Source: Candidatus Shapirobacteria bacterium (GTDB taxonomy: Bacteria; Patescibacteriota; Microgenomatia; UBA12405). From it: a stretch of 64,000 nucleotides of DNA. Under the pieces are notes generated by a model, which searched no databases, was not told the DNA's origin, and saw only the letters and a list, made by a program, of their open reading frames with translations. Location of the stretch: positions 14,249 through 78,248 of the forward strand of contig JACPHO010000001.1 of NCBI GenBank assembly GCA_016188545.1. Direction: 5' to 3'. Below are positions 2,303 to 56,083 of this stretch, one piece after another. Position numbers and translations under genes: made by a program. Positions within the stretch are counted from its first letter, which is position 1, and every line of letters begins with the position of its first letter.

Positions 2303-2560
2303 ATGTACTATACGTATGTGCTAAAAAGCCTTAAAGATGGAAAACTTTATACAGGATATACTTCAGATTTAGAAAAACGTTTTACACAACATTGCACAGG
2401 ATTAGTTAAGTCGACGTGTAACCGCCGACCCCTTAAAATAATTTATTATCAAGCTTTCATTTCTGAGCAAGATGCAAGAAATGAGGAAAAGTATTTAAAG
2501 TCTGGATCTAAACCTAGAAATGAATTAAAATTACGCATCAAAGAATCCCTTATTCTTTGA
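2303..2560 (+). CDS. GIY-YIG nuclease domain protein (small stand-alone)
   Basis: 85 aa; N-terminal YTYVLKS...GKLYTGYTSDLEKRFTQH matches the GIY-YIG motif (GIY...YIG...R...H). Confidence 0.75.
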   Translation: MYYTYVLKSLKDGKLYTGYTSDLEKRFTQHCTGLVKSTCNRRPLKIIYYQAFISEQDARNEEKYLKSGSKPRNELKLRIKESLIL

Positions 2561-4145: not shown

Positions 4146-4361
4146 CTAACTATTTTCGGCGTAAATTATTGTCACCTCAGGATGTTTTTCTGGTTCTTTT
4201 AGTACTGCCAGCAGTTGCATTAACGCGTTATACACCAGCCCGGATGTTACCCTGGTCGTCGGTACCTCTGCTACCTCAGTATTGGTAGATTCCGCCACCA
4301 TTGTTGACGCCTGCCTCTTATGTGGCCAGTTTATGGATTTATCAAGTGCACATGGCTCCAT
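4146..4361 (-). CDS. hypothetical protein
   Basis: 71-aa ORF downstream of the sigma/anti-sigma pair; no motif. Confidence 0.2.
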   Translation of the reverse strand: MEPCALDKSINWPHKRQASTMVAESTNTEVAEVPTTRVTSGLVYNALMQLLAVLKEPEKHPEVTIIYAENS

Positions 4362-5419: not shown

Positions 5420-5457
5420 AGTATCGATACTTTACCATAATTAATCTATACTAAATT

Positions 5458-6246
5458 ATGCTCTTCCGAAGATCTCCGCATGCCCTGGAAAAACTATCCA
5501 AAGAACTAAGGCAACTCATGCTTGATACTACCTATATTGCCGGTTCAGCTCATATCGGTGGTGCCCTCTCGGTACTCGACATAATTGTTGCCCTATATAA
5601 TTCTCCTGACCTGAACTTTGAAAAAGACCATTTTATACTTTCAGCCGGTCACCTCTGCTTGGCCCACTACGCCGTCCTTTCAAAAATTCATCATATATCC
5701 GAAAAACAACTTCAAACCTTCACTCAACTGGGATCCATCTTTCAGGGCCATGAATCTACTGATGTTCCAGGCGTTGAGTTTAGCTCTGGTAGCTTAGGTC
5801 AGGGATTATCTTTTGCGGCCGGTTTAGCCTTGGGTGACAAAGATAGTCATGTCGTTTGCGTCACCTCCGATGGTGAACATAATGAAGGTCAGATCTGGGA
5901 AGCTCTTATGTTTGCCAACAAGTATCATTTAGGTAACATTATTAATGTGGTTGACTATAACGGTATTCAGATTGATGGTAAGACTGAAGACATCATGCCT
6001 CTTGGTGAACTAGCCGCCAAATATCTTCGCTTCGGTTGGACTGTGACTACGGTCGATGGTCATGATTTTACCTCCCTTCTAAAAACTATCAAGCAAGCCA
6101 AAAATTCAACAATTTATCCTGCCTGTATCATTGCCAAAACTACCTTTGGTAAGGGAATTTCTTATATGGAAAACAATTCCGAATATCATCACATAAAAAA
6201 CCTTTCAGACAAACTTTATCAACTAGGGTTGGAGGAGCTATCTTAG
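5458..6246 (+). CDS. transketolase, N-terminal (TPP-binding) subunit
   Basis: 262 aa; GGALSVLD, GHLCLAHYAVL, SDGEHNEGQIWEA motifs; split-type transketolase. Confidence 0.85.
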   Translation: MLFRRSPHALEKLSKELRQLMLDTTYIAGSAHIGGALSVLDIIVALYNSPDLNFEKDHFILSAGHLCLAHYAVLSKIHHISEKQLQTFTQLGSIFQGHESTDVPGVEFSSGSLGQGLSFAAGLALGDKDSHVVCVTSDGEHNEGQIWEALMFANKYHLGNIINVVDYNGIQIDGKTEDIMPLGELAAKYLRFGWTVTTVDGHDFTSLLKTIKQAKNSTIYPACIIAKTTFGKGISYMENNSEYHHIKNLSDKLYQLGLEELS

Positions 6247-6269
6247 TTTTTATTCATACATCATAAATC

Positions 6270-7199
6270 ATGAGTCATATATCCCACAACCAAGCCTCCA
6301 TCCGTCAGTCGTTTGGAGACACTATCTACGAACTTGGATCGATTATGCCCGATCTCTATGTAGTTAGCATGGATCTACGTGAATCCATGAGGTTAACCCG
6401 ATTCGCCAATAAGTTTCGTTCTCGTTTTATCGAATGCGGTGTCTCTGAAAACAACGCTGCGGGTGTCGCTGCTGGCTTGGCAAAAGCTGGTAAGACAGTT
6501 TTTCTTGCTTCCTTCGCCTGTTTTTCTCCTGGTGTCAACTGGGGTACAATTCGTGAATCAATTTGTTACAACAATGCTAATGTCAAAATTGTTGGAGGTT
6601 ATGCTGGTTTAATGGCAGGAGTTCTCGGGGCCACTCATCAAATGTTGGAGGATATTTCTCTCGTCAGAGCCCTACCAAATATGGAAGTTTTTTCACCCGT
6701 TGATGCTACGGAAACTGCCAAGATTGTTAAGGCAATCGCTCGCACCAAGTCACCTGCCTATCTTCGAATTGTAGCTCCAGAGACACCATTAGTTTTTCCT
6801 CCACATCTCTCGTTCACTATTGGAAAGTCGAACGTCTTAAAAAAAGGTCGGGACATAACTATTATTGGTCACGGTCCTATTTTGACATCAGCCTTTACCA
6901 TCAACAAACCATCACTTGAAATTATCAACTGTTCATCAATCAAGCCTTTAGATGAAAAAACCATCCTAGCAAGCATCAAGAAAACCGGTCGTTGTATTGT
7001 CATCGAGGATCATCAAAAAAATGGTGGGCTAGGGGAGGCCGTCGCCTCGGCTATTCTCTCGTCTGAAGTAAAGTGTAAGTTCGCCCATCTGGCAGTCGAC
7101 AATCACTTCGGTCAGTCCGGCAAGGATTATCATCAACTATATTCCCATTATCATATAGGTCAAAAGAACCTAGAAAACGCTATTAAAAAAATCCTATGA
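6270..7199 (+). CDS. transketolase, C-terminal subunit
   Basis: 309 aa; transketolase pyrimidine-binding/C-terminal domains; follows the N-terminal subunit gene. Confidence 0.85.
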   Translation: MSHISHNQASIRQSFGDTIYELGSIMPDLYVVSMDLRESMRLTRFANKFRSRFIECGVSENNAAGVAAGLAKAGKTVFLASFACFSPGVNWGTIRESICYNNANVKIVGGYAGLMAGVLGATHQMLEDISLVRALPNMEVFSPVDATETAKIVKAIARTKSPAYLRIVAPETPLVFPPHLSFTIGKSNVLKKGRDITIIGHGPILTSAFTINKPSLEIINCSSIKPLDEKTILASIKKTGRCIVIEDHQKNGGLGEAVASAILSSEVKCKFAHLAVDNHFGQSGKDYHQLYSHYHIGQKNLENAIKKIL

Positions 7200-8060: not shown

Positions 8061-8981
8061 ATGTACGACGTTATTAGTCTCGGTGCTGCCACAGTTGATA
8101 TCTTTGTAAAATCTGACGGCTTTTCACTCCAGGATGATAAACTGGCGATAACCTATTCTAGTAAATACGAGATGACCGACAGTTTAATCTGCTCTGGTGG
8201 TGGTGCTACCAATTCTTCTGTCTCTCTTTCTCGGCTTGGGCTCAAGACCAGTTGTGTATCTCTTCTTGGTAACGATCCTTTGAGTTTGTATGTCTTTAAC
8301 GATCTCAAAGAAAACAACGTTAGTACTGACAATCTCGTTCACCTTAACAAAGAAGATACTGATTACTCGGTTATTTTGGTCGGTCCTGATGGGGGAAGAA
8401 CAATAGTTACTAATCGTGGTGTCAGTCGGCTTGAAAATGAAAACCTAAATTGGGATAAAATATCTCAGACCAGCTGGTTTTACATCACTTCACTTGAAGG
8501 AAACCTTGATCTACTAGAACAAATAATCGGCTTTGCCACCGAGCATCAAATCCGGGTTGCTCTCAACCCCGGCAATCGCGAATTGATGGATAGTAAACGT
8601 CTCATTCCATTGTTGTCTCACGTGGATTTTCTTTTACTAAATGGGATTGAGTCAGAGACTTTGACTGGTGTCCATGTCAACGAAGGCAACTACTGGGAAA
8701 CTTTACTTAGCTACGGTGCCAAAATTTCAGCTGTGACCAATGGTCGTCAGGGAGCCTACGTACTTACTTCCGAAGAGAAGCTATATTCACCAATTATTAA
8801 CACAACTCCAGTCGACGAAACTGGGGCAGGAGATTCTTTTGGTTCAGCTTTCGTTGGTGGTATTATCAACCGACTTTCTCCGGCAGATTCACTCTTTTGG
8901 GCTATTAAAAATTCTGCCTCAGTGGTTTCCGGTCTGGGAGCCAAAACGGGACTGTTAACTCTAGCTGAAATCAAGCAATAA
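8061..8981 (+). CDS. PfkB-family carbohydrate kinase (ribokinase-like)
   Basis: 306 aa; C-terminal PfkB signature DETGAGDSFGSAFVGG. Confidence 0.75.
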   Translation: MYDVISLGAATVDIFVKSDGFSLQDDKLAITYSSKYEMTDSLICSGGGATNSSVSLSRLGLKTSCVSLLGNDPLSLYVFNDLKENNVSTDNLVHLNKEDTDYSVILVGPDGGRTIVTNRGVSRLENENLNWDKISQTSWFYITSLEGNLDLLEQIIGFATEHQIRVALNPGNRELMDSKRLIPLLSHVDFLLLNGIESETLTGVHVNEGNYWETLLSYGAKISAVTNGRQGAYVLTSEEKLYSPIINTTPVDETGAGDSFGSAFVGGIINRLSPADSLFWAIKNSASVVSGLGAKTGLLTLAEIKQ

Positions 8982-9648: not shown

Positions 9649-11681
9649 GGTTGTGGTGTTGGTGTAGCTTTTGGTGAAGGACATTTTATATCTTTCTCTG
9701 TTCCGCTAATAAAATATTCTTCCCGACCACAAACATTTTTCTTTGCTACCCCCTCCGGAGGGATTAACCATTGAGTTGACTTTCGTGAGGCTATCATTTC
9801 TCTCATAATTTTATTCCAAATTGGAGTTGCCCCAGATACCCCAGACGCTACCCAGCTCATCGGACTATTGTCGTTGTTACCAACCCAAGCTGCCACCATC
9901 ACATCGTTAGTCCAGCCAATACACCAATTGTCTCGCAGACTATTTGTCGTCCCTGTCTTTACAGCCACAGTTTCATTATCTATTTTTAGTTTTGAATTCA
10001 AACCAAAAACAGGGGATCTGGCTTGGTTATCGCTCAGTGCACTATTTATCAAAAATGCCTGCTTTGGATCAATTGTTTCCACCCCCACTGCCTCACTCCC
10101 AAATACCTTTTCACCCAAGTAGTTCTCTATTTTAAGCACTGATGTTAGTTCAACCTTCTTTCCCATATTCGCGAAGATACTATATGCACTTGCCAGTTCT
10201 GTCATCTTAACTTCGCCAGCCCCCAGGGCGAGTGAAAGACCAAACCGACTCTTATCTTTCCAAGTATTAATTCCCATTTGTTCTGCCAGGTCGATCATAT
10301 TTTCCACTCCATTTGTCGCCAATAGTTTTACCGAAGGGATATTTAGTGATGAAGCGAGAGCTGTCCGTAGAGTTACATTCCCCAAATACTTACCATTATA
10401 ATTTACCGGTATGTAAGGCTTACTTTGACCAGCAATTTTGTATACGACCTTTTCATCATCGATTATCGTCGCCAAGTTTTGCCCTTTTTTTAGTGCCAGA
10501 AGATAGTTTATTGGCTTGATTGACGACCCTGGTTGTCGGAGTGCTGTTGTTACATTAAACTTACCATCCATATTTGAGGCAAAGTAATTTCTTGAACCCA
10601 CCATTGCTAATACTTCACCGCTTCCAGGGGATAGCACGATTGCTGCCCCGTTAGTGATTTTTAGTCTCTCAACAGAAGATACTTCCTCGGCGACAATTTT
10701 TTCGGCCATCTTCTGTATTTGGATATCAAGACTCGTTACCACTGTCATTCCTCTTCTGGCAAAATTGTCATAACCAAGCTTCTTTTCCAAAAAATCTTTG
10801 ACATAAAACACAAAGTGAGGGGCCTGAATGGTTGGTCGATTAACGACTATCTTAAGATCTTCCGCCCTCATGTCAGAGGCTTCTTTTTCCGTTATAAATC
10901 CGGCCGACTCCATTTCTGATATCACATGTTTTTGTCTTAAAAATCCAAATTTTGGGTTATCACCGGTGGGCGAGTATGAGCTAGGTGCTGCCGGTAAACC
11001 GGCCAAAAATGCTGCCTCTGCCCCAGTTATCTCCCATACATTTTTACCAAAATATTTTTTAGCTGCTTCCTGAACTCCATACGTCTCACCACCGTACGCC
11101 ACTTGGTTAAAATATCGCTCCAGTATTTCTTCCTTAGATAATTTTTTCTCAACCATCAGCGCCAGGAGAGCCTCCCGCATTTTTCTTTTCCATGTCTTCT
11201 CGTTTGAGAAAAATACGCTTTTCACTAACTGCTGAGTTATTGTCGATCCACCCTGAAGTGTTCCGTTATTTTCTCTTTTAAGCATGTTGTAGATTAGTGC
11301 CTGACTTATTCCTTTAACCGATATCCCCTGATGCTGTAAAAAGCTTTTATCTTCTATCGCCAGAGTTGCTATAACTAAAGACTTAGGAATCTTAGCCAAC
11401 GGTACCCAGCTCCTATCCTCATCTTCATAAAATTTATAAAGTAATACCCCGTTTCTATCCAAAATTTTTGAAGAGAGTCGAGGTGGGTTGTATATTTCGT
11501 TAACGTTCGGCAGGCCTACTATCACTTTCAAATACAACCATATCAACACCCCACTCATCCCCAGCAGTATTGATCCTAAAAACAGGTATGATCGGACAAT
11601 TCGTAATCCAAATTTTAAAATAATCAGTAGCGGCCATCCTAATGCGATTAGCATTTTTTTAAGTAACAGAATTGGTCGCAT
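9645..11681 (-). CDS. class A penicillin-binding protein (PBP1A family; transglycosylase + transpeptidase)
   Basis: 678 aa; GT51 motifs EDKSF, GGSTITQQLVK; transpeptidase SSIKP (SxxK), SLN, KTGTT. Confidence 0.85.
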   Translation of the reverse strand: MRPILLLKKMLIALGWPLLIILKFGLRIVRSYLFLGSILLGMSGVLIWLYLKVIVGLPNVNEIYNPPRLSSKILDRNGVLLYKFYEDEDRSWVPLAKIPKSLVIATLAIEDKSFLQHQGISVKGISQALIYNMLKRENNGTLQGGSTITQQLVKSVFFSNEKTWKRKMREALLALMVEKKLSKEEILERYFNQVAYGGETYGVQEAAKKYFGKNVWEITGAEAAFLAGLPAAPSSYSPTGDNPKFGFLRQKHVISEMESAGFITEKEASDMRAEDLKIVVNRPTIQAPHFVFYVKDFLEKKLGYDNFARRGMTVVTSLDIQIQKMAEKIVAEEVSSVERLKITNGAAIVLSPGSGEVLAMVGSRNYFASNMDGKFNVTTALRQPGSSIKPINYLLALKKGQNLATIIDDEKVVYKIAGQSKPYIPVNYNGKYLGNVTLRTALASSLNIPSVKLLATNGVENMIDLAEQMGINTWKDKSRFGLSLALGAGEVKMTELASAYSIFANMGKKVELTSVLKIENYLGEKVFGSEAVGVETIDPKQAFLINSALSDNQARSPVFGLNSKLKIDNETVAVKTGTTNSLRDNWCIGWTNDVMVAAWVGNNDNSPMSWVASGVSGATPIWNKIMREMIASRKSTQWLIPPEGVAKKNVCGREEYFISGTEKDIKCPSPKATPTPQP

Positions 11682-14438: not shown

Positions 14439-15216
14439 ATCTTATTCTATCACTTGGGTGAAAAAATGCTGACCGAAGTCCCACAATTTCTGAACTAATT
14501 TTCCGTTTCATGTACCACCACTGCGGCCAAAAAACTAACCAATTTATCAAATCCAAGATTCTGTTGTCCGTTGTTTTTACTTTTAATTTTTTACTTTTTA
14601 CTTTTGACATTTTACTTCCATATCCATTAGCTACATGCTTACCTACCCAGTCATTTTCGGCCAGAAAATTTTCATAAGTCTTATTCTTGTTCAAAATTGG
14701 AACCATCAAAATAGTATCCATCGCGTTCCTTAGTGTTTGTTTATTTTTTGGTAGTTTCATTTCACCTTCTTCTATCCACAGGTTAAAACACAAGTCATCT
14801 TTATTTTCACTTAATCCAAACTTTCGGTGGGGGATTTTATTAAAAAAAACATACAGTCTCAGCACTAATCTATTAATCCACAAGCGGTTACTCTTAGTGA
14901 CAATCATTAGGTCAATGTCGTCATTTTGTCTACAATACCCAGCCGCCACCGATCCAGTCACCGTTATCAGTAAGATATCCGGAAAAACCACTGCCAATTT
15001 TTTTGCAAAAAGACTAACTTTTTCTAGTTTGGACTCAGTAAACTCACTTTTTTTAGTAAACTTTTCAATGTCCTTTGATAGTCTTTTCTTAATGTCTTCA
15101 CTACTATAACAGTGACTACTAATTAGCCGCTTTGTTAACTCTTCAGGACTGTATACCACCCCAAACTGACTACCGTATTCTCTTGTTTTTTTAATTTCCT
15201 TATCCAGTTGGTCCAT
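14416..15216 (-). CDS. nucleotidyltransferase-fold protein, LicD/fukutin-like (putative glycopolymer phosphotransferase)
   Basis: 266 aa; GSVAAGYCRQNDDIDLMIV resembles the pol-beta NTase and LicD DDDID motif; sits next to glycosyltransferase genes. Confidence 0.35.
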   Translation of the reverse strand: MDQLDKEIKKTREYGSQFGVVYSPEELTKRLISSHCYSSEDIKKRLSKDIEKFTKKSEFTESKLEKVSLFAKKLAVVFPDILLITVTGSVAAGYCRQNDDIDLMIVTKSNRLWINRLVLRLYVFFNKIPHRKFGLSENKDDLCFNLWIEEGEMKLPKNKQTLRNAMDTILMVPILNKNKTYENFLAENDWVGKHVANGYGSKMSKVKSKKLKVKTTDNRILDLINWLVFWPQWWYMKRKISSEIVGLRSAFFHPSDRIRYADEDNR

Positions 15217-25043: not shown

Positions 25044-26075
25044 TTATTCCCATGCTGGCAGACTGCCCTTCGTCAGTAGTTCTAACATCATCCCTCCACC
25101 AGAAGCGATTAAGTCAATTTGTTCTTTCATCCCCAAACTTTCTACAGATGCTGTCGTATCCCCACCAGCCAGTACTTTATACCCTGGACTACTGGCCACA
25201 GCCATGGCTATTTCTTTTGTTCCTTCTTTACAGTCATCCTTTTCAAACCACCCCATGGCTCCCGCCCAGACAACCATTTTTGACTGGCCGATAATTTCTT
25301 TAAATTGAGCTATGTCTTCTTTACTTAGATCAAATCCATCTTCTCGTAATTTTGCAACTTTTATTTTTTCACTTTTAACTATTAACTCTTCACTATTATT
25401 AATTAATAGTGGCAATTTCCCCCCAATTAACACATGATCGGCAATTTTTAGAAGTTCCGGCAAATGACTTAATTTATCTGCTTTTGCTCCACCCAATACG
25501 ATAGTCAATGGGTGACTAGGATCATCAACTACTTTTAATATTTTTTCTACTTCGGAAATAAACGCCAATCCATAAAATCCTGGCAAACTTTTATAAAGCA
25601 TATTAGATCTTTCCTTTCGGTGGGACACCGCCAGAGCATCATTTACAAAAAATTGGCAGATTTCCACAAGATTTTTTAAAAAGTCACTATCATTTGCCTC
25701 TTCACCTTTCCAGAATCTCAGGTTCTCCAAAAATACTATTTGATTTGTTGCCATCGCCATATCCAGCTTTTCAAAGTTACCCACATCCTCCACAAAAATA
25801 CTCTCTATCAAATTTTCACCGTTTGGTTCGAGTAAGCTCATTAGTTCCACATACACCGGTCTCATTGAATATTTTGGGTCATGCCCTTCAGGACGACCAA
25901 GCTTACCCACTATAGAGACCTGACATTTTTTGGCGAGCAGTAGTTTTATAGTAGGAATCGATTTTACTAGTCGGTAGTTATCGCTGATATCCCCATCATT
26001 CATTGGCACGTCTAAGTCTAGTTTTAGAATTACTTTTGTCTCTGGTAATATTTCCTCAACCGATCTCAGCTTCAT
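25044..26075 (-). CDS. pgk: phosphoglycerate kinase (short form)
   Basis: 343 aa; GRPEG, FLENLRFWKGEE, LGGAKADKL, WAGAMGWFE, AGGDT motifs. Confidence 0.85.
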   Translation of the reverse strand: MKLRSVEEILPETKVILKLDLDVPMNDGDISDNYRLVKSIPTIKLLLAKKCQVSIVGKLGRPEGHDPKYSMRPVYVELMSLLEPNGENLIESIFVEDVGNFEKLDMAMATNQIVFLENLRFWKGEEANDSDFLKNLVEICQFFVNDALAVSHRKERSNMLYKSLPGFYGLAFISEVEKILKVVDDPSHPLTIVLGGAKADKLSHLPELLKIADHVLIGGKLPLLINNSEELIVKSEKIKVAKLREDGFDLSKEDIAQFKEIIGQSKMVVWAGAMGWFEKDDCKEGTKEIAMAVASSPGYKVLAGGDTTASVESLGMKEQIDLIASGGGMMLELLTKGSLPAWE

Positions 26076-36923: not shown

Positions 36924-38501
36924 TGTACTAAGAGTTTGATCGTGGCTCAGGGTAAACGCTGGCGATGTGCCTAAGACATGCAAGTCGAACGGGATTTGTA
37001 GTCTACACGAAGACATTGATAACTTCTTAACTTTTTTTAAGTCTTTCCACTTTTGGAATATTTTTTTGAACTTTGATAAGAATCGATTATTGTAATCATT
37101 TCGATGTTTTCGTGTAGATTATAGATTCAGTGGCGAACGGGTGAGTAATGAGTACGAACGTACTCTCAAGCGGAACATAGCCCACCGAAAGGTGGGGTAA
37201 TTTTCCATAGTCTCGAAAGAGTAAAGACGCAAGTCACTTGAGAAGCGGCGTACTTGCCACCAGCTAGTTGGTAGGGTAACGGCCTACCAAGGCTATAACG
37301 GCTAACGGCTCTTAGCGGAGAGTCCGTCACAATGGGACTGAGACACGGCCCATACTTCTACGGAAGGCAGCAGTTAGGAATCTTGCACAATGGACGAAAG
37401 TCTGATGCAGCGACATCGCGTGAAGGATGAAGGCTCTCGGGTCGTAAACTTCTTTTATTTTGCCATGAAGGCATTTTGAATCAGCAACTACTAACTACGT
37501 GCCAGCAGTCGCGGTAATACGTAGGTTGCAAGCGTTACCCGGTTTTATTGGGCGTAAAGCGTCTGTAGGTGGTTTTATAAGTCTTATTTCAAAGACTCCG
37601 GCTCAACCGGAGATAGGGGTAGGATACTGTAAGACTAGAGTGATATCGGGGTTACTGGAATTTTTAGTGTAGGGGTAAAATCCGTGGATACTAAAAAGAA
37701 CACCAAGCGCGAAGGCGGGTAACTAGGTATTTACTGACACTCAGAGACGAAAGCTAGGGTAGCCAATCAGATTAGAGACCTGAGTAGTCCTAGCCGTAAA
37801 CTATGTATGTTAATTCTCTGCAATTTATTGTGGGGGATGTAAGCTAACGCGTTAAACATACCGCCTGGGGAGTATAGCCGCAAGGCCGAAACTCAAACGA
37901 ATTGGCGGGGAGGCGCACAACCAGTGGAGCATGTGGTTCAATTCGATACAAAGCGATGAACCTTACCTGGGTTTGACATTTATCTGCAAACCCCCAGAAA
38001 CGGGGGAATCCTTAGAGGGTGATAAACAGCTGTTGCATGGCTGTCGTCAGCTCGTGACGTGAGTTGTTCTCTTAAGTGAGGTAACGAGCGCAACCCCCAT
38101 CCGGTGTTATTGTGTCACCGGAGACTGCCTAGCATTATTTTGTTAGGAGGAAGGAGGGGACGACGTCAAGTCAGCATGATGCTTATGTCCAGGGCTACAC
38201 ACATCCTACAATGGGGAGGACAATGGGTCGCGAAACCGCGAGGTGGAGCCAATCCCACAAACCTTTCCTCAGTTGGGATTGCAGGCTGAAACTCGCCTGC
38301 ATGAACCCGGAATTGGTAGTAATCGCGCATCAGCAGCGCGCGGTGAATACGTTCTCGCCTCTTGCACACACTGCCCGTCAAATCAACAAAGTTGGGGGTA
38401 CCCGAAGCTTGGCCTTTGGCCGAATCAAGGTAAATCCAGCGATGAGGGTTAAGTCGTAACAAGGTATCTGTACTGGAAGGTGCAGATGGATCACCTCCTT
38501 T
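36924..38501 (+). rRNA. rrs: 16S ribosomal RNA, divergent (CPR-like), with ~100-nt AT-rich expansion in helix 6/V1 (~36995-37118)
   Basis: AGAGTTTGATCGTGGCTCAG at the 5' end; GTGCCAGCAGTCGCGGTAATAC (515 site with C>T); ATTAGAGACCTGAGTAGTCC; CTGCCCGTCA; AAGTCGTAACAAGGTA; GGATCACCTCCTT at the 3' end. Confidence 0.9.
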
Positions 38502-40482: not shown

Positions 40483-42238
40483 GACCTATTCAATGCTAAA
40501 ATTATTAGTGGTCCACAAATTTATATTTATTTTTACTCTTTACTCTTTACTTTTTACTTTTGTTGGCAGAGTATTTGCCGACGAGGTCGATGATTGTATC
40601 AAAAATAATCCCGGTAATCAGGACCCATGTATTTCCCTTATTAGCAAAAAAATAACCGACCTCCAAAATGCTATTAACCCACTTCAAAAAGAGTCCACCG
40701 GACTCCAATCCAAGATCACCTCCGCTAAAGTAACTATTGCCAACATGGAGAAACAAATTGTGACATTGGGTGAAAAGCTGATCAACAAAGAAACCAACTT
40801 AGAAGTCCAAAAGACCTTGTTGTATGAGCGGGTTCGCCAGTACTATATCAACAGTCGAAAATACAACCCTCTTCTGGTCTTTTTCTCCAGCCATGAATCC
40901 ACTTCTCTTTTGCGGTCTTACTCGTGGTACCAGGCGGTTATTAATCAGGATAAAAATACTATCACCACCTATGTTTCCGATATTTCCAGCTTAAATCAAA
41001 ACAAAACAAAACTAGAAAGTGAAAAAACTAAATTAGCTTCACTCAAAAAAACCTTCGAATCTCGAATCACTTTTCTTGGCGGAGAAATTAAAAAAGCCGA
41101 AGCGTATAAAGCTGACCTAAGTAAACGCCAACAGTCCTTAATTGCTGAAAAAAACGCTCTCTTTTCAACTAGTGTCGGAGATGTCAGTAGTAGTGACGAT
41201 CCTGCCTCACGCTCGGACTACAACCCTGGCTTCTCACCAGCCTTTGCTGTCTTTTCCTTCGGAGCCCCGCACCGCAACGGTATGAGCCAATACGGCGCTT
41301 TCGGTCGGGCCAAAGCCGGGCAAAACTACGAAACAATCCTCAAAGTCTACTATGGTGACATTCGTGTCGAAAAAATCGACACCGGTAGTTCCATCAAAAC
41401 TGATGTTGGTACTTTGCCTTTTGAGGACAACTATTTAGTTGGAATTGCCGAAATGCCGGCCAAATGGGGTGATGAGGGTGGTTATGAGGCTCTCAAAGCA
41501 CAGGCTATTGCTGCTCGAACCTATGCTCTTAGTCGCACTGAAAACTTGAACAAACAAATTTGTGTTACTGAAGCCTGTCAGGTCTATAGTAAATCACGTC
41601 TTAATTCTCCCGGTCGTTGGCGTCAGGCTGTTGCTGATACTCGGGGTATGGTTGTCAAAAGTAACAAAACTGGCCAAATTTTCTCTACCAAATACGCCTC
41701 CACCTCTGGTGGCTCAATTCTTTCCTATTCCTCCTCAGGTCACTCAACGCCTATGTTGTGGGACACCACCTGTGGTAATCAATCTTGCTGGCCTAGTAGC
41801 TCTTATGAAAAGTCGGCTGGGTCTGCTTGGTATTACAAAGGTTGGTACAAATCGCGCACCGGATCCGCTTACGGGCGTTCTCACCCTTGGTTAAACAACG
41901 AAGAGTTTAGTGACATCGTCAACGCTGTTTTATATTTCACCAAAACTCAAGACCAAAGTCACCTTTCTCAGAACCAAAACTGTATTAGTGGTTGCGATCC
42001 GGACTCATGGTCGAGAGATGAATTAAAACGTCAGGTCTCTGATAAAGGTGGTCCGGTAACACGAGTTAATTCAGTTAGCGTCGACTATTCCACAGGTGGC
42101 TATACTAAGACCGTCCGTGTCGGTACTGATAAGGGTGACTTGGTTTTTGATGGGGGAGACTTCCGCGACATTTTTACCCTCCGCGCCCCTGGCGCTCTTA
42201 CCGCCAAATCCGGGTTATTCAATATCGAGAAAAAATAG
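40481..42238 (+). CDS. SpoIID/LytB-domain protein with N-terminal signal peptide and coiled coil
   Basis: Start placed at the internal Met (MTYSMLKLLVV); coiled-coil region; C-terminal SpoIID/LytB motifs GMSQYGAFGRAKAG, YLVGIAEMPAKWGDEGGYEALKAQAIAARTYAL. Confidence 0.7.
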   Translation: MTYSMLKLLVVHKFIFIFTLYSLLFTFVGRVFADEVDDCIKNNPGNQDPCISLISKKITDLQNAINPLQKESTGLQSKITSAKVTIANMEKQIVTLGEKLINKETNLEVQKTLLYERVRQYYINSRKYNPLLVFFSSHESTSLLRSYSWYQAVINQDKNTITTYVSDISSLNQNKTKLESEKTKLASLKKTFESRITFLGGEIKKAEAYKADLSKRQQSLIAEKNALFSTSVGDVSSSDDPASRSDYNPGFSPAFAVFSFGAPHRNGMSQYGAFGRAKAGQNYETILKVYYGDIRVEKIDTGSSIKTDVGTLPFEDNYLVGIAEMPAKWGDEGGYEALKAQAIAARTYALSRTENLNKQICVTEACQVYSKSRLNSPGRWRQAVADTRGMVVKSNKTGQIFSTKYASTSGGSILSYSSSGHSTPMLWDTTCGNQSCWPSSSYEKSAGSAWYYKGWYKSRTGSAYGRSHPWLNNEEFSDIVNAVLYFTKTQDQSHLSQNQNCISGCDPDSWSRDELKRQVSDKGGPVTRVNSVSVDYSTGGYTKTVRVGTDKGDLVFDGGDFRDIFTLRAPGALTAKSGLFNIEKK

Positions 42239-42957: not shown

Positions 42958-43471
42958 TTCAATCCTCATCTATGCCTTTAGCAACCAATGGGCCACCAAT
43001 ATCTCCCGACGTGTCTTATCAGAACTCCAAAATAACCTAAAATCATCTGACATTACCTTCCTCCCCATCCACTATCATCCCAAAAGCTTTTTCAAAAAAC
43101 ATATTGAATTCAATAATTATTCCTTAATTATCGGTCTGGGGGATTTCTTCGGTAAAACAGACAAAATTAGATTGGAAACAATCACTCACAACGTCTATGG
43201 TGAAAATTCAATCTATCCGTTTTCCCCAATCAATTTAGAAATATCCCTCCCTCCTCTTGACTGTCTTGACACCCGTATTTTTACAGTTGGTGAGCATATG
43301 GGCAAATACAATTGCAATTGGTTAGCCTATTCAACCGAGCTCTACATCCAGCAATATTCTCCCAACACCAGACAACTATTTTTTCACCTCCCCAAAACCC
43401 AAAAAGCCACCATTCTGGCAAATCAAATTATTACAATGTTCAAAAATAATAGTATTTTGCCCTATTCATAA
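42950..43471 (+). CDS. hypothetical protein
   Basis: The annotated ORF 42773-43471 overlaps the previous gene out of frame; a more plausible start is the Met at ~42950 (MANSILIYAF...). Confidence 0.35.
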   Translation: MANSILIYAFSNQWATNISRRVLSELQNNLKSSDITFLPIHYHPKSFFKKHIEFNNYSLIIGLGDFFGKTDKIRLETITHNVYGENSIYPFSPINLEISLPPLDCLDTRIFTVGEHMGKYNCNWLAYSTELYIQQYSPNTRQLFFHLPKTQKATILANQIITMFKNNSILPYS

Positions 43472-43476
43472 ATCAT
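43465..43476 (+). promoter_or_regulatory. TTCATAAATCAT motif instance (promoter-like), upstream of 43511
   Basis: exact 12-mer; TATAAT at 43500-43505, 5 nt before the ATG. Confidence 0.3.
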
Positions 43477-43510
43477 ATGTCATAAAACTTAAATCATTGT
43501 ATAATTCACT

Positions 43511-44472: not shown

Positions 44473-44814
44473 TCTGGGTGCCATTACTGTTCCAGTCTTG
44501 CTTATTCTTATTGTGACACTTTCATTTTGGACACTTTTAATTGCACTGTTAACACACCAACCATCGTCACCTTTTTCGCCAAGGTAGGCCCCCATGAAAG
44601 TTACTCTGTCTCCTTTTTTTACATAAAGCTCAGCCAAACTTGGGCTAGCTGTCACTGGTATAACGACAACATCATAACTCGCACTTCTACCCTCCTCGCT
44701 ATTTGATGCGACATGAATATTTTTGGCATTACGTAATGTTGCGTTAATTTTTTCCAGAGCATTTTCAGCAGCAACAATCTGTTGCTTATCCATTGCGCCT
44801 CTATGGTTTTTCAA
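44467..44814 (-). CDS. hypothetical protein
   Basis: 115-aa ORF. Confidence 0.3.
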   Translation of the reverse strand: MKNHRGAMDKQQIVAAENALEKINATLRNAKNIHVASNSEEGRSASYDVVVIPVTASPSLAELYVKKGDRVTFMGAYLGEKGDDGWCVNSAIKSVQNESVTIRISKTGTVMAPRL

Positions 44815-44953
44815 GTCGTTTTCAATGCAACTAGAATGAATTATGATATTTATATCTCGTCCAGTTATATCCTATATTATACAATAAGTTGACTATAAAA
44901 TCAATGTTACCTATTAAATTTGTAATCTAAAAAATTCAGTTTACACTTAATTA

Positions 44954-45298
44954 ATGAAGATTTCTCGTTTTGAAGAAATTTTAGTCTGGCAAAAAACCAA
45001 GCCATTTATTGTCGAAATCTACAAATCATTTTTAAATGTCGGCGACTATTCATTCAGAGACCAGGTACTTCGTGCCAGTGTTTCAATTATGAATAATATT
45101 GCCGAAGGTTTTGAAAGAGGCTCCAATCCTGACTTCAAAAAGTTTCTTTACATTTCCAAAGGATCAGCCGGTGAGGTCCGCTCCATGCTCTATCTTGCAC
45201 TGGACTTATCATATATTACCCAAGAAAAATCCGCTAAACTTATACAAGAGACAGAAGAGATCTCAAAAATGTTATCTGGCTTAATTAAAGTACTTTAA
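44954..45298 (+). CDS. four-helix-bundle protein (23S rRNA intervening-sequence protein family)
   Basis: 114 aa; ...SIMNNIAEGFERGS...FLYISKGSAGEV... typical of PF05635/TIGR02436. Confidence 0.65.
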   Translation: MKISRFEEILVWQKTKPFIVEIYKSFLNVGDYSFRDQVLRASVSIMNNIAEGFERGSNPDFKKFLYISKGSAGEVRSMLYLALDLSYITQEKSAKLIQETEEISKMLSGLIKVL

Positions 45299-45355
45299 TA
45301 CTAACTTTATGAACCTTACAAACTTTATAAACTTTTTAACTTTATAAACTCAATT

Positions 45356-47206
45356 ATGCACTTCATTTGTCGATCTTTTCTGGGCCATACCGAAGAAAAC
45401 TCATGGTCCCAATATTGGGAGAATGAACCAGATGATCGACAGTTGGTTTTAGAGAAAGGACACTTATTTGCCCTAGTAAATATTGTTTCTGATCAAGATA
45501 GCTCAACTAGTGACCTGGGACACCGGCTTATTGAAGAGATTAATGGACAATATTTTTCTTCAACTGGTACCACGATACCTATCTCACTGAAAAGTACAGT
45601 CGAATCGGTAGTCGCCAGTACCCAAAACGAATTGGTCGACATCTCCCTCACAGTAGCTATAGTTCACCGTTCTCAGCTATATATTGCCATGTACAATTCC
45701 GGCTATGGGTTTTTAGTTAGGGGTAAAAGTATTTCAAAAGTAATTAGTGGTAAAACCGGTGAAGTAACCATGATCTCTGGTAAGGTGCTATCAAACGATT
45801 TGCTGTTTGTTTGCACATCAGGTTTTTATGACAATCTATCTCCAGAAAAGTTAAAATCGTTTTTATCTTATTCGACAATTCAGGAAATCGAAGAAAGCTT
45901 TTTATCTGAACTTTACACCCTTTCGCAACAACACACTCTTGCCGGACTTCTGATAGGAGTTTACGAAGAAGACCAACGTCTTCCCCTAATGTCCGAGCCA
46001 AAATCAGTTCCCAGAGAAATACACGAGGTAGAAACAGTTACACTTCCTTCCGAAGAAGTGTCAGCTCCCGGACAACCATCTGTTTATATTACATCTCATG
46101 ATTCATCAGGAATCAAAAAACGTCGCCGGTTAAATATAGCTATTGGGTTAATTATCCTGATTGCCTTATCCATCAGTATTTTTTTTGGTTCAAAACGCAA
46201 CCAAGAAGCCAAAATAGAGTCAGAATATCAGTCACTCAAAACTCAGTATCTCGCCAAAATCGACAACGCCAAAGCCGTTAAAAACATCAATCTAACCGAG
46301 TCCCAAAATCTCGCCAAAAACGCCAAAGACATCGCATCCAAGATGCATGATCTAAAAATTCATGAGGAAGAAGTAAAGCAACTAATTGCATCTACTGATG
46401 AAATTCTTTCTCAAACTGGCTCAGCTGATAGTTACCAGCCACAACGTTTTTACGACACTACTCTTATAAACTCAGAAGCTCAGTATTCTCAACTTATCAT
46501 CCAAAAGAATAACCTTTTCCTCTTAGACACATCCAACGGTCATGTAGACAAGCTCGACGTTTCCTCTAAGAGCCAACAAAAAATCGTCTACAATGATGCT
46601 CTCAAAAACACAATAAGCTTCAGTGAAAACAACGGTCAATTATATTTTCTTACCGACAAAAAGATCCAATCTTTTAATGGTGTCTCGCTTACGTCTGTAC
46701 TTACCATTACTGATGGTGTCAAAGATTTTGAGTGGGGCAAGATCGCCATGTGGAATGGAAGTCTGTATTTAATGGGTAAAACTCCTACCTCAACCAGCAT
46801 TTGGAAATACACCCCCTCGGGGAATTCCTTTGGTTCAGTCACAGAATGGGTCAAAAAACCCTCCGAGTTTCCCTCTAACGCCTCCTTCTTTGCTATCAAC
46901 GGCCAGGTCTGGGTTATTACCAAAGATGGCAGCATAGTTCCATATAATCGTGGTGAAAAAGGCCAGTTTAAGTCCCAAATTACTAGCAGCCTCTCAGCTG
47001 CTAACAACTTAGTTACTGCACTCAGCTCCGAAACTCTGGCTTTTACCGAAAAAGACAACTTCGTCTATGTCTATCGTAAGGACGGTTCTACTGCCTCGAG
47101 TTACAACTTTGGTGATCGTCATGTTCTTAGTATTGCTCTTGACTCTACTGCTAATCGATTATTCGTGCTCTGTGGTGATAAAAAAATCTATCAAATTAAG
47201 TTATGA
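45356..47206 (+). CDS. large hypothetical protein (N-terminal cytoplasmic domain, single TM, coiled coil, C-terminal beta-rich domain)
   Basis: 616 aa; TM around LIILIALSISIFF. Confidence 0.4.
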   Translation: MHFICRSFLGHTEENSWSQYWENEPDDRQLVLEKGHLFALVNIVSDQDSSTSDLGHRLIEEINGQYFSSTGTTIPISLKSTVESVVASTQNELVDISLTVAIVHRSQLYIAMYNSGYGFLVRGKSISKVISGKTGEVTMISGKVLSNDLLFVCTSGFYDNLSPEKLKSFLSYSTIQEIEESFLSELYTLSQQHTLAGLLIGVYEEDQRLPLMSEPKSVPREIHEVETVTLPSEEVSAPGQPSVYITSHDSSGIKKRRRLNIAIGLIILIALSISIFFGSKRNQEAKIESEYQSLKTQYLAKIDNAKAVKNINLTESQNLAKNAKDIASKMHDLKIHEEEVKQLIASTDEILSQTGSADSYQPQRFYDTTLINSEAQYSQLIIQKNNLFLLDTSNGHVDKLDVSSKSQQKIVYNDALKNTISFSENNGQLYFLTDKKIQSFNGVSLTSVLTITDGVKDFEWGKIAMWNGSLYLMGKTPTSTSIWKYTPSGNSFGSVTEWVKKPSEFPSNASFFAINGQVWVITKDGSIVPYNRGEKGQFKSQITSSLSAANNLVTALSSETLAFTEKDNFVYVYRKDGSTASSYNFGDRHVLSIALDSTANRLFVLCGDKKIYQIKL

Positions 47207-47250
47207 GATAATCACATAGTTTTGTCTTATTCATACTTCTTAAATCATAT

Positions 47251-47261
47251 TTCATAAATCA
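47251..47261 (+). promoter_or_regulatory. TTCATAAATCA motif instance immediately upstream of smpB start
   Basis: ttcatacttcttaaatcatatTTCATAAATCAatATG; upstream TTCATA plus 17 nt plus cATAAAT gives a -35/-10-like geometry with the ATG 4 nt after. Confidence 0.3.
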
Positions 47262-47263
47262 AT

Positions 47264-47910: not shown

Positions 47911-48156
47911 TTATTCTTCAAAATGTTTCTTGGCAAATGCAATTCCTGATCCGGTTTTTAAATATTTCTCAAACTTAAAAGCAACCTCTTTATTTCTAAA
48001 ACAATGATATTGCCACAAAATCACTGGCAATCTTGATTTGGTATTTTTTACGTTACCATCCGTATGTTCCTTAAATCTATTTTTAAGGTTATCTGTACAC
48101 CCTACATAAAAACCATTATCCGCACACTTTAAAACATATACGATTTGCGCCACCAC
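47911..48156 (-). CDS. GIY-YIG nuclease domain protein (small stand-alone), second copy
   Basis: 81 aa; IVYVLKC..NGFYVGCTDNLKNRFKEH. Confidence 0.7.
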   Translation of the reverse strand: MVAQIVYVLKCADNGFYVGCTDNLKNRFKEHTDGNVKNTKSRLPVILWQYHCFRNKEVAFKFEKYLKTGSGIAFAKKHFEE

Positions 48157-48199: not shown

Positions 48200-48700
48200 A
48201 AAAATATAAAGGAGGACTTTGTCACTCCGAAGCTCCCCAAAGGGGAGCGAAGGAGGAGATGCCAGGTATTGAGCCCGGGTCCGAAAGTGGACAATAAAAA
48301 ACTTCTACAAGCTTAATTAATTTTACTTGCCAGTCCGTAGCTCAAAGAGCGAAGGATGGTCCGTCAGTCAATGGAAATTAACAAACCATTGTTGACTGTC
48401 GATTATTGAGGGCATTACCCCTCGCTTGTTACCTACCAAAATCGAGATTGATAGACCAGCATTCTTGTTTAATTTACACCGACTAACCTCCTCAAGAATA
48501 GGGGATTAACCGATGGTCAGCTCAATTATGCTTGCGCGTAGTTGAGATCAGCTTTTGAAGTACCCAAACCGAAGCCTGAGAAATCTAGAGCTAAATTGAC
48601 ACCGAAGTTTTTAGCTTTGGCATGTTTTTGTTTGACCCTGTTTTATCCGTTTTACAACAGATCCGGCTCGGCCGGACGACTCAATGGATCAAAGTCGGCT
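48200..48700. ncRNA. candidate structured RNA in a 617-nt ORF-free gap (tmRNA or RNase P RNA-like; strand and ends unresolved)
   Basis: GC-rich hairpins (ctcccc-aaa-ggggag; gagggcattacccctc); plus strand: ACAGATCCGGCT resembles RNase P CR-IV and can pair with GAGCC[C]GGGTC 385 nt upstream (P4-like), GCCAGGTA shared with M1 RNA; minus strand: GGGGTAATGCCCTCAATAATCGACAG resembles a tmRNA 5' end; adjacent to smpB. Confidence 0.2.
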
Positions 48701-48773
48701 TGCGGTTTTTTAAGGTACTCACTCCGTCGATGCAATACATCTCCGAGTCTAGAACAGGAAAATTATACCATAT

Positions 48774-53625: not shown

Positions 53626-55182
53626 CTATTTCAATGAATATTTTTGAATCATTTGGTTTATACCATTCCGCAGATCCGGCATCACAACTTCGGCAGTTAG
53701 ATTTTTCATAGCGAGACCGTTGATGGCATCAGCAAAGTATTTTGACATCTCATCATTTAAGCCCTCATCAAATGTTCGTGACGACATGTACCAGCCGTCA
53801 GCATTGTTGGCTACTTTGACAAATGGGCGGGTCAGAGGATTGGATTCCATCTTATCAGCCATACTTTTTCTCGGGTATATTTCGCCAAAACTCCGAATCT
53901 GAGATGCTGCAGTATACATCTTTTCCAAATTATCTTTTGATGATAAAAATTCCAAAAATTTCCACGCTTCTTTTTGGTTTTTACTTTTGGAGCTCACTCC
54001 CTCAGCCCAATACGTTGACCAATGAATGTTAGTCAAATTAGCTTCATTGTTTACTTGATCAGGCGGTACATCCTTTAGTGTTGGCAGTTGAGGCACAGTT
54101 GTTATCTCATACTTCAGTTCTGGAATTTTCTTTTCTTCTATGTTGAATGCTCTCCAGCTTGGCGCAAAATAAAACGCCAACTTTCCATTGGCAAACAGCT
54201 CAGTTGAGGAAGGTAGAGCTTCGTCCCATACCTGGTGTTTTGTCTTAAATAGGGAATAATATGTCAATACATCCTGAAGTTTCTTCTCACTATCCGCATC
54301 GGTTAAAAGCGGATTAACCCCGCCCTGTTTCAACATTAGTCCTACAATATCGCTCCAGTGATCGACATTGTCAACCAAACCCATGGCCGCCCCCGACACT
54401 GTGATCTTGCCATTAACATCTCTTACCGTCAGCTTAGTAGCTGATTGCTCCAGATCCCACCACGACTTTGGTAAGCCCACCCCAGCTGATTCGATTAGGT
54501 CTTTGTTGTAGAAGAGTGATAATCCGTCATACATCAGAGGAATACCCTGCCAGCTTCCGTTTGTCTTAATTGTATTTTTGTAGGCCTCAAAAAAATCAGT
54601 ATCGAGACCCACCCTACCGGCGGTATCGCTTGGCACTTTCGCCAGATCAGTTTTAAACAGTGGTACCCAGGCAGAATGGTATCGAAAAATATCCGGCGAA
54701 TCAGACCCACCTTCTTCAATTCTGGTCTTAAGTCTGGTTCTATAGTTTACTTTCTGGTTTCGGACATAGTTTATCTTTACTCCTGGGTTCTTAGACTCAT
54801 AATCAGCGATTATCCCCTGGATCGTCGATGGCTCTTCCCATAGACCCCAATAGTTCAGGGTGATATTTTCCTGTTTAGTTCCACCAAGGTTTGGAATTAT
54901 TACCTTAAATACCAGAAAAAGTATCACAACAATCAGCAATCCAATTCCGCCGATTATTAACAGCTTTTTAGTATCCACAGGTTTGGCTAATGGTAGGCTA
55001 TTACTGCTAGTAGTACTTCTCTGCACTTCGGGGTTTATTACTGTTGCACTGGCGACTTCATCTTGTTCCTTCGGCATGTTCACTACCGGAGATGTTTCTT
55101 GTTTATCATCTTCCGGATCATATAGGCTGCTAAACCTTCTTGGTGGAAGCGGCGACTTAATATCCTCTAAAGCCATACTCAA
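53626..55182 (-). CDS. ABC transporter substrate-binding protein (family 1, sugar-type), membrane-anchored
   Basis: 518 aa; N-terminal low-complexity segment plus TM, then SBP_bac_1-like domain. Confidence 0.65.
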   Translation of the reverse strand: MSMALEDIKSPLPPRRFSSLYDPEDDKQETSPVVNMPKEQDEVASATVINPEVQRSTTSSNSLPLAKPVDTKKLLIIGGIGLLIVVILFLVFKVIIPNLGGTKQENITLNYWGLWEEPSTIQGIIADYESKNPGVKINYVRNQKVNYRTRLKTRIEEGGSDSPDIFRYHSAWVPLFKTDLAKVPSDTAGRVGLDTDFFEAYKNTIKTNGSWQGIPLMYDGLSLFYNKDLIESAGVGLPKSWWDLEQSATKLTVRDVNGKITVSGAAMGLVDNVDHWSDIVGLMLKQGGVNPLLTDADSEKKLQDVLTYYSLFKTKHQVWDEALPSSTELFANGKLAFYFAPSWRAFNIEEKKIPELKYEITTVPQLPTLKDVPPDQVNNEANLTNIHWSTYWAEGVSSKSKNQKEAWKFLEFLSSKDNLEKMYTAASQIRSFGEIYPRKSMADKMESNPLTRPFVKVANNADGWYMSSRTFDEGLNDEMSKYFADAINGLAMKNLTAEVVMPDLRNGINQMIQKYSLK

Positions 55183-55225
55183 TCATAGCAAACATATAGT
55201 CCTATTATTATTCACAAATCATACT

Positions 55226-55237
55226 TCATAAATCATA
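55226..55237 (+). promoter_or_regulatory. TTCATAAATCAT motif instance (tandem with CACAAATCATAC) upstream of 55263
   Basis: tcacaaatcatacTTCATAAATCATacttc; TATAAT at 55257-55262 abuts the ATG (leaderless geometry). Confidence 0.3.
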
Positions 55238-55262
55238 CTTCAAACAAATTTTACTCTATAAT

Positions 55263-56018: not shown

Positions 56019-56083
56019 TATATTTTGCAAACTACATATTTATTAGGTAACATATTACCAAGTGTTAAGAAGATGCTAATCCA

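Follow-up and report, generated by a model that had tools for sequence, protein, structure and literature searches.

Heptad arrays beside start codons in a Candidatus Shapirobacteria genome: probably members of a dispersed repeat family rather than a shared promoter or operator

In cyanobacteria, short tandemly repeated repetitive (STRR) sequences are built of tandem heptanucleotide units; they are dispersed, mostly non-coding and of lineage-specific abundance, and have no established function. Heptads of another kind, with the sequence WATCACW, form the operators of the omega repressor of plasmid pSM19035 (inc18), a ribbon-helix-helix (RHH) protein. From marine Beggiatoaceae, some Cyanobacteria and Bacteroidetes, heptamer direct repeats of the sequence TAACTGA were described (MacGregor 2015, PMC4679880), in 169 sets of 2-6 copies, most of which end a few nt upstream of start codons that have no ribosome-binding site (RBS); the downstream genes are unrelated and include ribosomal operons, the distribution is patchy and crosses phyla, and a role in translational regulation was proposed. 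Among the long simple repeats of prokaryotes, those with heptanucleotide units are the most frequent (Mrazek 2007, summarised in PMC4679880). Rickettsia palindromic elements (RPE), finally, insert in frame into unrelated genes (PMC10969869). The present analysis deals with arrays of heptads of the consensus TCATAAA, found at four gene starts in a 64-kb stretch (contig JACPHO010000001.1, positions 14,249 to 78,248; called the window below) of the genome of Candidatus Shapirobacteria (Microgenomates, candidate phyla radiation, CPR). The first-pass annotation of this DNA had taken the motif for a shared promoter or operator.

With the TAACTGA sets, the arrays have in common a 7-nt unit in 2-6 tandem copies that are frequently 'split' by 7-mers related to the unit, a large number of sets dispersed over each genome, set ends near RBS-less starts of unrelated genes, stop codons within the unit and a patchy distribution that crosses phyla; they differ in the unit, which here is TCATAAA or TCNTAAA, and in the hosts, here Patescibacteria/CPR and Chloroflexota-like bacteria. 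Like STRR they are tandem heptads at many mostly non-coding loci, but STRR have other unit sequences and are often longer and more homogeneous, whereas the window arrays consist of 3-5 imperfect units in a recurrent variant order. The motif is probably one arm of a dispersed heptanucleotide tandem-repeat family (unit TCNTAAA), and not a promoter or operator. Such a family would behave like selfish or mutationally generated repeat DNA, whose copies persist where they are tolerated and populate the very short spacers of this genome; the shortness of the spacers, about 29 nt, would explain why the repeat sits beside start codons. Two things are separated in this way, namely a pervasive leaderless gene-start architecture free of Shine-Dalgarno (SD) sequences and a repeat family located beside starts, and a regulatory reading would create a false regulon of tkt, smpB and zupT. 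The genomes of these organisms are minimal ones, in which all bases are commonly taken to be under pressure. The four arrays of the window were as follows.

6253-6283, plus strand: heptad array 1, TTCATAC ATCATAA ATCATGA GTCATAT ATC, in the tktN-tktC spacer and running into the first tktC codons.
43465-43499, plus strand: heptad array 2, TTCATAA ATCATAT GTCATAA AACTTAA ATCATTG, between the upstream gene's stop codon and the -10 box that precedes ATG 43511.
47230-47263, plus strand: heptad array 3, TTCATAC TTCTTAA ATCATAT TTCATAA ATCAAT, abutting the smpB ATG 47264.
55211-55245, plus strand: heptad array 4, TTCACAA ATCATAC TTCATAA ATCATAC TTCAAAC, in the 80-nt divergent spacer between a solute-binding-protein gene (minus strand) and zupT.

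Each array consists of 3-5 imperfect head-to-tail units, so that a 7-nt unit in at least three head-to-tail copies is present throughout. Four copies of an 11-12-mer had been reported earlier. In the window scan, the exact 11-mer TTCATAAATCA was found three times (43465, 47251 and 55225, all on the plus strand), against 0.16 expected from dinucleotide shuffles, none of 100 shuffles reaching three; at the remaining site, 6253-6271, two overlapping copies (TTCATACATCAT and ATCATAAATCAT) carry one mismatch each. The exact count is therefore three and not four, and the tandem motif does recur at four sites, all on the plus strand. When up to two mismatches were allowed, the 12-mer was not enriched in the window (23 matches vs 16.2 expected), so the signal lies in the tandem arrangement. 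Three consecutive heptads of the form WTCATAH were present at the four sites only, with 11 overlapping hits vs 0.57 in dinucleotide shuffles (maximum 3), which agrees with the excess over chance claimed earlier. The same four sites were recovered by a stricter in-register heptad scan, and Tandem Repeats Finder (TRF) reported a period of 7 or 14 at 6254-6283, 47231-47261 and 55211-55242. In about 130 kb of DNA from relatives, one strict array was found (L002, at smpB), compared with four in the 64-kb window.

Intergenic DNA accounts for 5.3% of the window (3.4 kb), with a median spacer of 29 nt. All four arrays lie in mostly non-coding DNA near RBS-less starts of unrelated genes, and no SD-like motif was found near them. 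The gene names assigned earlier were confirmed by Pfam for TktN/TktC, SmpB and the ZIP protein, and the relatives of SmpB and TktC assign the window to Candidatus Shapirobacteria. The placement given for the motif, 0-35 nt upstream of starts, held in that all four arrays are within 35 nt of a start codon; at tktC, the ATG (6270) is not downstream of array 1 but inside its third unit. A TAGT lies 5-11 nt upstream of each window array and could be a weak -10; in two of the four cases it is the stop codon of the upstream gene, and it was not seen at the metagenome copies described below.

The RNA of the window arrays was predicted to be essentially unstructured, with folds of 0 to -4.7 kcal/mol (0.0 for array 4) and z-scores near 0. 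A hairpin or terminator role was rejected for these copies, which are solo arms without structure. An Rfam scan of the whole window at gathering thresholds gave no match at the four array sites, the only matches being 16S rRNA, tmRNA, two tRNAs and a SAM-I/IV riboswitch. Complementarity to 16S rRNA or tmRNA was likewise rejected, as no 12-mer site (up to two mismatches, either strand) lies within 36924-38501 or 48251-48744.

Outside the window, copies were collected with the 20-mer AAATCATAYTTCATAAATCA, which is common to the smpB and zupT sites. It was found in 101 metagenome stretches representing 74 distinct contexts, with a GC content of the locus of 0.16-0.65, and in 36 of the 74 contexts the heptad register continued past the query. 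TCATAAA was by far the most used unit, before TCATACT, TCTTAAA, TCATATT and TCGTAAA, which amounts to TCNTAAA; a typical arm reads TCATAAA TCATAYT TCATAAA TCATAAA TC. Several metagenome loci hold 3-5 arrays, and in the window the same unit recurs at 4 loci in 64 kb, far above chance. The range of hosts extends beyond the CPR: L010, a high-GC locus with two arrays, encodes a LeuC that is 82-83% identical to Chloroflexota/Dehalococcoidales proteins, and its arrays end and are then followed by ordinary SD sequences.

A frequent form in the metagenome loci is an inverted pair, the left arm of which abuts a stop codon while the right arm ends 2-13 nt before the next start. Divergent inverted pairs are 10-45 nt apart, and their RNA folds have -10.6 to -33 kcal/mol (z -2.5 to -12). 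Such pairable arms were found in metagenome loci and not in the window, where 4/4 arrays are solo arms; among the TAACTGA sets, one case of an inverted pair is known. The genes downstream of metagenome arrays are unrelated and include L4, AtpA, RuvX, an FtsE-like ABC ATPase, glycosyltransferases, PfkB, SWIB and a type IV secretion system (T4SS) pilin. Relative to flanking co-directional genes, solo metagenome arrays showed no orientation bias (13 sense, 16 antisense), in contrast to the window, where 4/4 are sense toward the downstream gene, and to the TAACTGA sets, of which 147 point toward starts and 12 toward stops. The distance from array to start in other genomes was spread evenly over 2-25 nt, with no peak.

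Copies were also found inside genes. An ideal array has stops in all three frames in both directions (TAA forward, TGA reverse), and copies would therefore survive only in spacers or in coding DNA in which the stop of every third unit has been lost. Of 96 arrays, 20 were read through in frame, with an open reading frame (ORF) extending at least 150 nt on both sides; one frame of the translated copies is opened by a change in every third unit (TAA to TAY, GATTTAA to GATTTAC). That about 20% of the copies are translated is a further difference from TAACTGA. The Pfam domains GATase_3, LeuRS Anticodon_1, MurD-like_N, Competence (ComEC), Glycos_transf_2 (GT2) and PMT span such arrays; in a GatD-like protein, GATase_3 model positions 1-195 extend over residues 9-227, with about 24 extra residues (...AVEI[HDLRFKIYENGGKNHKSYFINHKST]LVGFENH...). 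Inverted heptad pairs are translated in GatD-like and LeuRS genes of related CPR contigs (L029, 4274-5089, minus strand, L039 and L085; L034, 2269-4947, minus strand, L048 and L102). Copies that stand in both orientations and in frame inside genes do not behave like a promoter or operator.

The shared unit could instead be a compositional coincidence, produced by independent local slippage of AT-rich seeds with no common origin or function. Heptanucleotide repeats are, as noted above, the commonest long simple repeats in prokaryotes (PMC4679880), viral contigs contain perfect triplets of control heptads with equal composition just as often, the tkt junction of L115 holds another heptad, and further period-7 and period-9 repeats are present in the window. 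The arrays, however, are not homogeneous, unlike fresh slippage products, and the specific imperfect pattern AAATCATAYTTCATAAATCA recurs at two window sites and in about 74 metagenome contexts, with none in viral contigs. Four loci with the same unit within 3.4 kb of intergenic DNA and the recurrence of the inverted-pair architecture in unrelated contigs also speak against it, and the non-coding window arrays show the same TAY variant pattern as the translated copies, which argues for a common origin over fresh local slippage. We consider this explanation quite unlikely.

[quoted passage not shown] They resemble both as short, non-autonomous, palindromic spacer repeats with presence/absence differences between relatives (PMC10969869), and RPE also in the in-frame insertion into unrelated housekeeping genes without destroying them, as seen for the 20 read-through arrays. 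RPE and MITEs can donate promoter, leader or processing signals to their neighbours. They are 100-200 bp long and consist of unique sequence bounded by terminal inverted repeats, usually with target-site duplications, whereas the TCATAAA element measures 21-85 nt, is composed wholly of 7-nt units and is represented in the window by solo arms only. Three properties recall RPE and TAACTGA/STRR: the core is identical in two phyla or more, spacers are filled by inverted pairs, and essential genes contain copies in frame. It is possible, though somewhat doubtful, that the TCNTAAA arrays are previously undescribed miniature palindromic elements that cross phyla (Patescibacteria/CPR and Chloroflexota at least), spread horizontally and within genomes, land in spacers and essential genes, and have solo arms repeatedly co-opted as leaders in SD-less CPR genomes. 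In that case, the in-frame copies in LeuRS, GatD, MurD and ComEC would add the peptides HKSYFINHKS or DLRFKIYDL. The copies may have spread by transposition, conversion or slippage.

A phage vehicle was considered and found no evidence, as (TCATAAA)3 was not commoner than the controls in viral contigs and AAATCATAYTTCATAAATCA gave 0 matches there. A protein-database search with the translated element (43 aa) returned two candidates and was uninformative. The full-text literature search for the literal tandem heptad gave only unrelated primer hits, and a literature search for in-frame palindromic elements together with Patescibacteria gave nothing relevant.

The regulatory reading of the motif was set against the gene-start architecture of the window. 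A TAnnnT hexamer ended 4-8 nt before the start in 31/76 genes (41%), compared with 9.7% of 1864 control ATGs, and its spacing to the start peaked at 5-6 nt. These -10 hexamers were mostly TATAAT, TACAAT or TAGAAT, often with a TG upstream and with no clear -35. SD-like motifs were not enriched (5/76 genes vs 8.9% of control ATGs), and the 3' end of the 16S rRNA is canonical (GGATCACCTCCTTT, with the CCUCC tail). On the sequence evidence, leaderless gene starts are pervasive in this genome, and an ordinary TATAAT box 5-6 nt before the start is the real leaderless signal here, distinct from the heptads. Examples of TAnnnT-type starts are those at 28308, 28761, 50463, 61944 and 62630 on the minus strand and at 47675 and 57292 on the plus strand. 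The leaderless-mRNA promoters of Actinobacteria and Deinococcus carry a -10 box 5-7 nt upstream of the start codon. With these, the 31 window genes share the position of the box, a frequent extended TG and a weak -35; the likeness concerns the TATAAT boxes beside the motif and not the heptads, and the host here is a CPR bacterium. A literature search linking leaderless initiation, Shine-Dalgarno sequences and Patescibacteria gave nothing relevant.

Two of the four array sites contain such a box.

43500-43505, plus strand: TATAAT -10 box of the 43511 gene, 5 nt before ATG 43511; conserved in relatives.
55257-55262, plus strand: TATAAT -10 box of zupT, abutting ATG 55263 and 6 nt before ATG 55269.

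Both had been noted earlier as TATAAT 0-5 nt before an ATG, and both were located as described. For zupT, the true start is probably ATG 55269, as its spacing fits the 5-6 nt mode of the genome. In the 43511 orthologs of three relatives (L001, L002 and L003), TGTTATAAT + 5 nt + ATG is kept, in the form (TG)TTATAAT or TAAAAT + 5 nt + ATG, and the heptad array is absent from all three. Aligned with L001, array 2 corresponds to a clean gap of some 35 nt, flanked by the gene end and by TGTTATAAT, both of which are conserved; this presence/absence polymorphism with conserved flanks has the same pattern at the tkt junction. The zupT ortholog of L003 has TAAAAT + 7 nt + ATG and no array. Conservation of the motif at orthologous genes, named earlier as a check, was absent at 3/4 orthologous sites, the array being present only at smpB in L002. 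From their sequences, the 43511 gene and zupT are read as having leaderless mRNAs that start from TATAAT boxes separate from the heptads.

In L002, the slot of array 2 holds an unrelated GC-rich repeat instead. A GC-rich, hairpin-like spacer repeat of this kind (cccccttttcaaggggg aagcggcgtagccgaggggg) is dispersed in relatives, just upstream of leaderless -10 boxes (L002, approximately 6015-6068, 7030-7083 and 9888-9940; L003, approximately 4170-4260 and 8160-8260).

At the tktN-tktC junction, the promoter is likewise located elsewhere.

5424-5452, plus strand: TCGATA-17-TATACT, which ends 5 nt before ATG 5458 of tktN; predicted promoter of the operon tktN-tktC-fba.

This promoter precedes tktN and makes tktC an internal cistron, and the operon order tktN-tktC-fba is kept in L109-L115. 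Array 1 fills the 23-nt gap between tktN and tktC and continues into the gene, the codons after the ATG (AGT CAT ATA TCC) being array units; only the first four tktC codons are array-derived in the window. In relatives at 91% and 87% identity, the junction consists of stop + 5 nt + ATG, and the N-terminus of TktC is different and longer; this N-terminus varies between relatives. A TCATAAA array at the junction was absent in all relatives examined (five distinct). A different heptad, ATTNAAA, is present at the junction in L115 (8361-8409), a Shapirobacteria relative, and in L116 (189-237); it reads AAATTGT AAATTGA TTAAAAA TTCAAAA TTGAAAA TTAAAAA. The tktN-tktC junction is a recurrent site for 7-nt repeats.

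These results bear directly on the proposal that the arrays are a shared sigma-70-type promoter, with TTCATA as -35 and CATAAAT as -10, that gives leaderless or near-leaderless transcripts. The geometry stated for smpB (TTCATA, 17 nt, CATAAAT, 4 nt, ATG) proved exact on reading the sequence; the consensus scan gave TTCACA-17-CATACT in the zupT array and ATGTCA-17-TATAAT at 43511, where an array unit would serve as -35 (the -35-like ATGTCA, 43477-43482, lies within array 2), and the genome is rich in leaderless genes. However, the best candidates inside the arrays, CATAAA and ATAAAT, lack either T at position 6 or A at position 2, whereas the real leaderless genes use TAnnnT, mostly TATAAT; both bases, at the spacing of a leaderless start, are provided only by 43500-43505 and 55257-55262. 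No site was found within the smpB or tktC arrays, and the scan totals equalled the shuffle expectation. Moreover, tktC is an internal cistron, the array-to-start distance in other genomes is even over 2-25 nt, orthologs keep the -10 boxes and not the motif, and copies stand within genes and in antisense. Of all explanations weighed, this one is the least probable and retains very little chance. The part of the earlier proposal that concerned leaderless mRNAs fared better: by the sequence, it is right for the 43511 gene and zupT and genome-wide, and would be wrong for tktC, an internal cistron, and for smpB, which is predicted to be leadered.

The operator half of the proposal can be phrased on the omega model, with the arrays bound cooperatively by an RHH-type repressor that co-regulates the downstream genes. 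The arrays share with the omega operators contiguous 7-bp units in direct and inverted arrangement, TCACAAA/TCATAAA resembles AATCACA (AATCACA vs AATCATA), and 2/4 window arrays overlap promoter -35 regions. The heptads here are nevertheless chromosomal, beside functionally incoherent genes, inside coding regions, immediately after stop codons and absent at orthologous promoters, and their near-identical sequence in at least two phyla and at a GC of 0.16-0.65 would need an equally widespread conserved regulator. The small ORFs of the window yielded no gene for an RHH or another small DNA-binding protein; a Pfam scan of ten of them (E<=0.1) gave DUF5657, GIY-YIG (twice), a T4SS pilin and others, and no RHH or helix-turn-helix (HTH) family. 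The idea was rejected on the lack of a regulator among the small ORFs and on the coding and antisense copies, and we regard it as very unlikely. Under the preferred reading, that of a dispersed repeat family, the neighbouring genes would be driven by separate elements: the TATAAT-type boxes, the operon promoter upstream of tktN and TGAGATAAT upstream of smpB.

At smpB, a promoter can be predicted upstream of the array.

47204-47212, plus strand: candidate extended -10 promoter of smpB, TGAGATAAT, overlapping the TGA stop of the upstream gene; conserved.

Transcription from it is predicted to start near 47218-47220, giving a leader of about 45 nt that includes array 3, consists mostly of heptads and is G-poor and SD-free. 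smpB would thus be leadered, the opposite of the leaderless mRNA proposed earlier. An in-frame TAA lies 9 nt upstream of the smpB ATG, and for array 3 an RNA of little structure is predicted (-4.7 kcal/mol). The 63 nt upstream of smpB (47201-47263) are 81% identical to L002 (9938-10000), whereas smpB itself is 48% identical at third codon positions and 36% at 4-fold degenerate sites, i.e. saturated; L002 matches the non-repeat block TATGAGATAATCAC-TAG-TTTGT-TTA at about 90% identity. An array occupies the same smpB position in L002 (9966-9994), with a different unit order. No array was found upstream of smpB in L001 and L003; in L001, the closer relative, the upstream region has been swapped for TATAAT + 9 nt + ATG. 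Since the upstream region is 81% identical despite saturated synonymous sites, the smpB array appears to have been co-opted and kept under selection, as a conserved promoter with an SD-less heptad leader. This leader offers a specific example on which the co-option of a repeat arm for SD-independent initiation can be tested. An arm that abuts a start codon, as at tktC and smpB, would be transcribed as a G-poor, unstructured, AUG-free and SD-free spacer, on which ribosomes could initiate without Shine-Dalgarno pairing.

Alternatively, the heptads would be a dedicated post-transcriptional RNA signal of 5' leaders and intercistronic spacers, through which an RNA-binding factor (S1, cold-shock or KH-type) recruits or blocks ribosomes on SD-less mRNAs. 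Start codons are abutted by two arrays, and a further start codon stands within an array; 4/4 window copies are sense, the smpB leader is conserved and the genome has no detectable SD use. Many metagenome arrays end 2-13 nt before SD-less starts, including those of the internal operon genes rplD and atpA, and the TAACTGA repeats of Beggiatoaceae are a close literature analogue (PMC4679880). Yet solo metagenome arrays are antisense as often as sense, a fifth of the arrays are translated within genes, and close relatives express the same genes without the array. At 43511 and zupT the array lies upstream of the leaderless -10 and thus outside the main mRNA, and in the Chloroflexota-like L010 the arrays are followed by an ordinary SD. 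On balance, a dedicated RNA signal is unlikely, though it has a real chance of being correct.

Several observations weigh against the preferred reading of the arrays as copies of a tolerated repeat family. With random intergenic placement and random orientation, an array would be forward and within 35 nt of a start codon in 19% of cases, and the finding of 4/4 such arrays has a p of ~0.001, computed post hoc; this may reflect selection for some property related to expression, or a filter that acts through one. A filter could work through orientation, as the reverse orientation has an ATG in every unit, which may be harmful beside a start codon, and the forward orientation has none. Conservation of the smpB copy over a saturating divergence means that at least one copy is not junk. 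Convergence is a further point: perfect (TCATAAA)3 was present in 61 stretches of viral contigs, vs 38 and 96 for two control heptads of the same composition; AT-rich heptamer repeats in general form readily, and convergence could account for part of the metagenome signal. The AAATCATAYTTCATAAATCA query fixes one open frame (TAY) by construction, and only the long read-through ORFs count as evidence of translation. In L039/L085, a second array (DLGFKIYDLR) stands where the L029 protein has a segment of the same length (DVGFDYRQLA), which looks more like conversion or in-situ evolution than insertion. A target-site duplication was not seen at the insertion boundaries read (L039/L085 vs L029, and the 43511 alignment), and no transposase or master copy turned up, although no transposase search of array-rich loci was run.

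Further observations concern neighbouring features. In the spacer of array 4, the solute-binding-protein gene (minus strand, 55174-55190) probably starts at ATG 55176 rather than TTG 55182, since TGCTATGAT + 5 nt + ATG fits the leaderless spacing. The SAM-I/IV riboswitch (56057-56158) precedes metK, and the mechanically assigned TTG start at 56084 lies inside it; the likely start is the ATG near 56147, preceded by AAAGGAAAA, which places metK among the few SD-like, leadered genes of the window.

Other period-7 repeats, T-rich (TTTTTAC and similar), were found within coding regions at 14574-14617, 25356-25398, 40526-40561 and 60231-60279, where they encode hydrophobic or lysine-rich low-complexity stretches; the copy at 40526 is conserved in L002. 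A block of about 880 nt (44473-45355) is absent from L001, L002 and L003 and holds a 115-aa ORF (minus strand, no Pfam hit) and a gene (44954-45298) for a 23S-rRNA-intervening-sequence (IVS) protein, a four-helix bundle. A 9-nt tandem repeat, AACTTTATA x5.4 (45303-45350), lies directly upstream of TAAACT + 5 nt + ATG 45356. Two stand-alone genes of about 80 aa with a GIY-YIG domain are located at 2303-2560 (plus strand) and 47911-48156 (minus strand); one of them adjoins smpB, and L002 has an ortholog. A link of the arrays to the 23S-rRNA-IVS or GIY-YIG genes was rejected, as only one metagenome locus (L028) has an array-flanked intervening-sequence-protein (IVP) gene.

The tmRNA gene (48251-48744, minus strand), 0.6 kb from smpB, matched Rfam with 67 bits and spans 494 nt vs a model of 374 positions; it was not reported by ARAGORN, which suggests an unusual or insert-bearing tmRNA. 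The 16S rRNA gene (36924-38501) is present without a 23S gene following it. Almost throughout the window, and whichever way the genes point, GC skew is negative (about -0.1 to -0.33).

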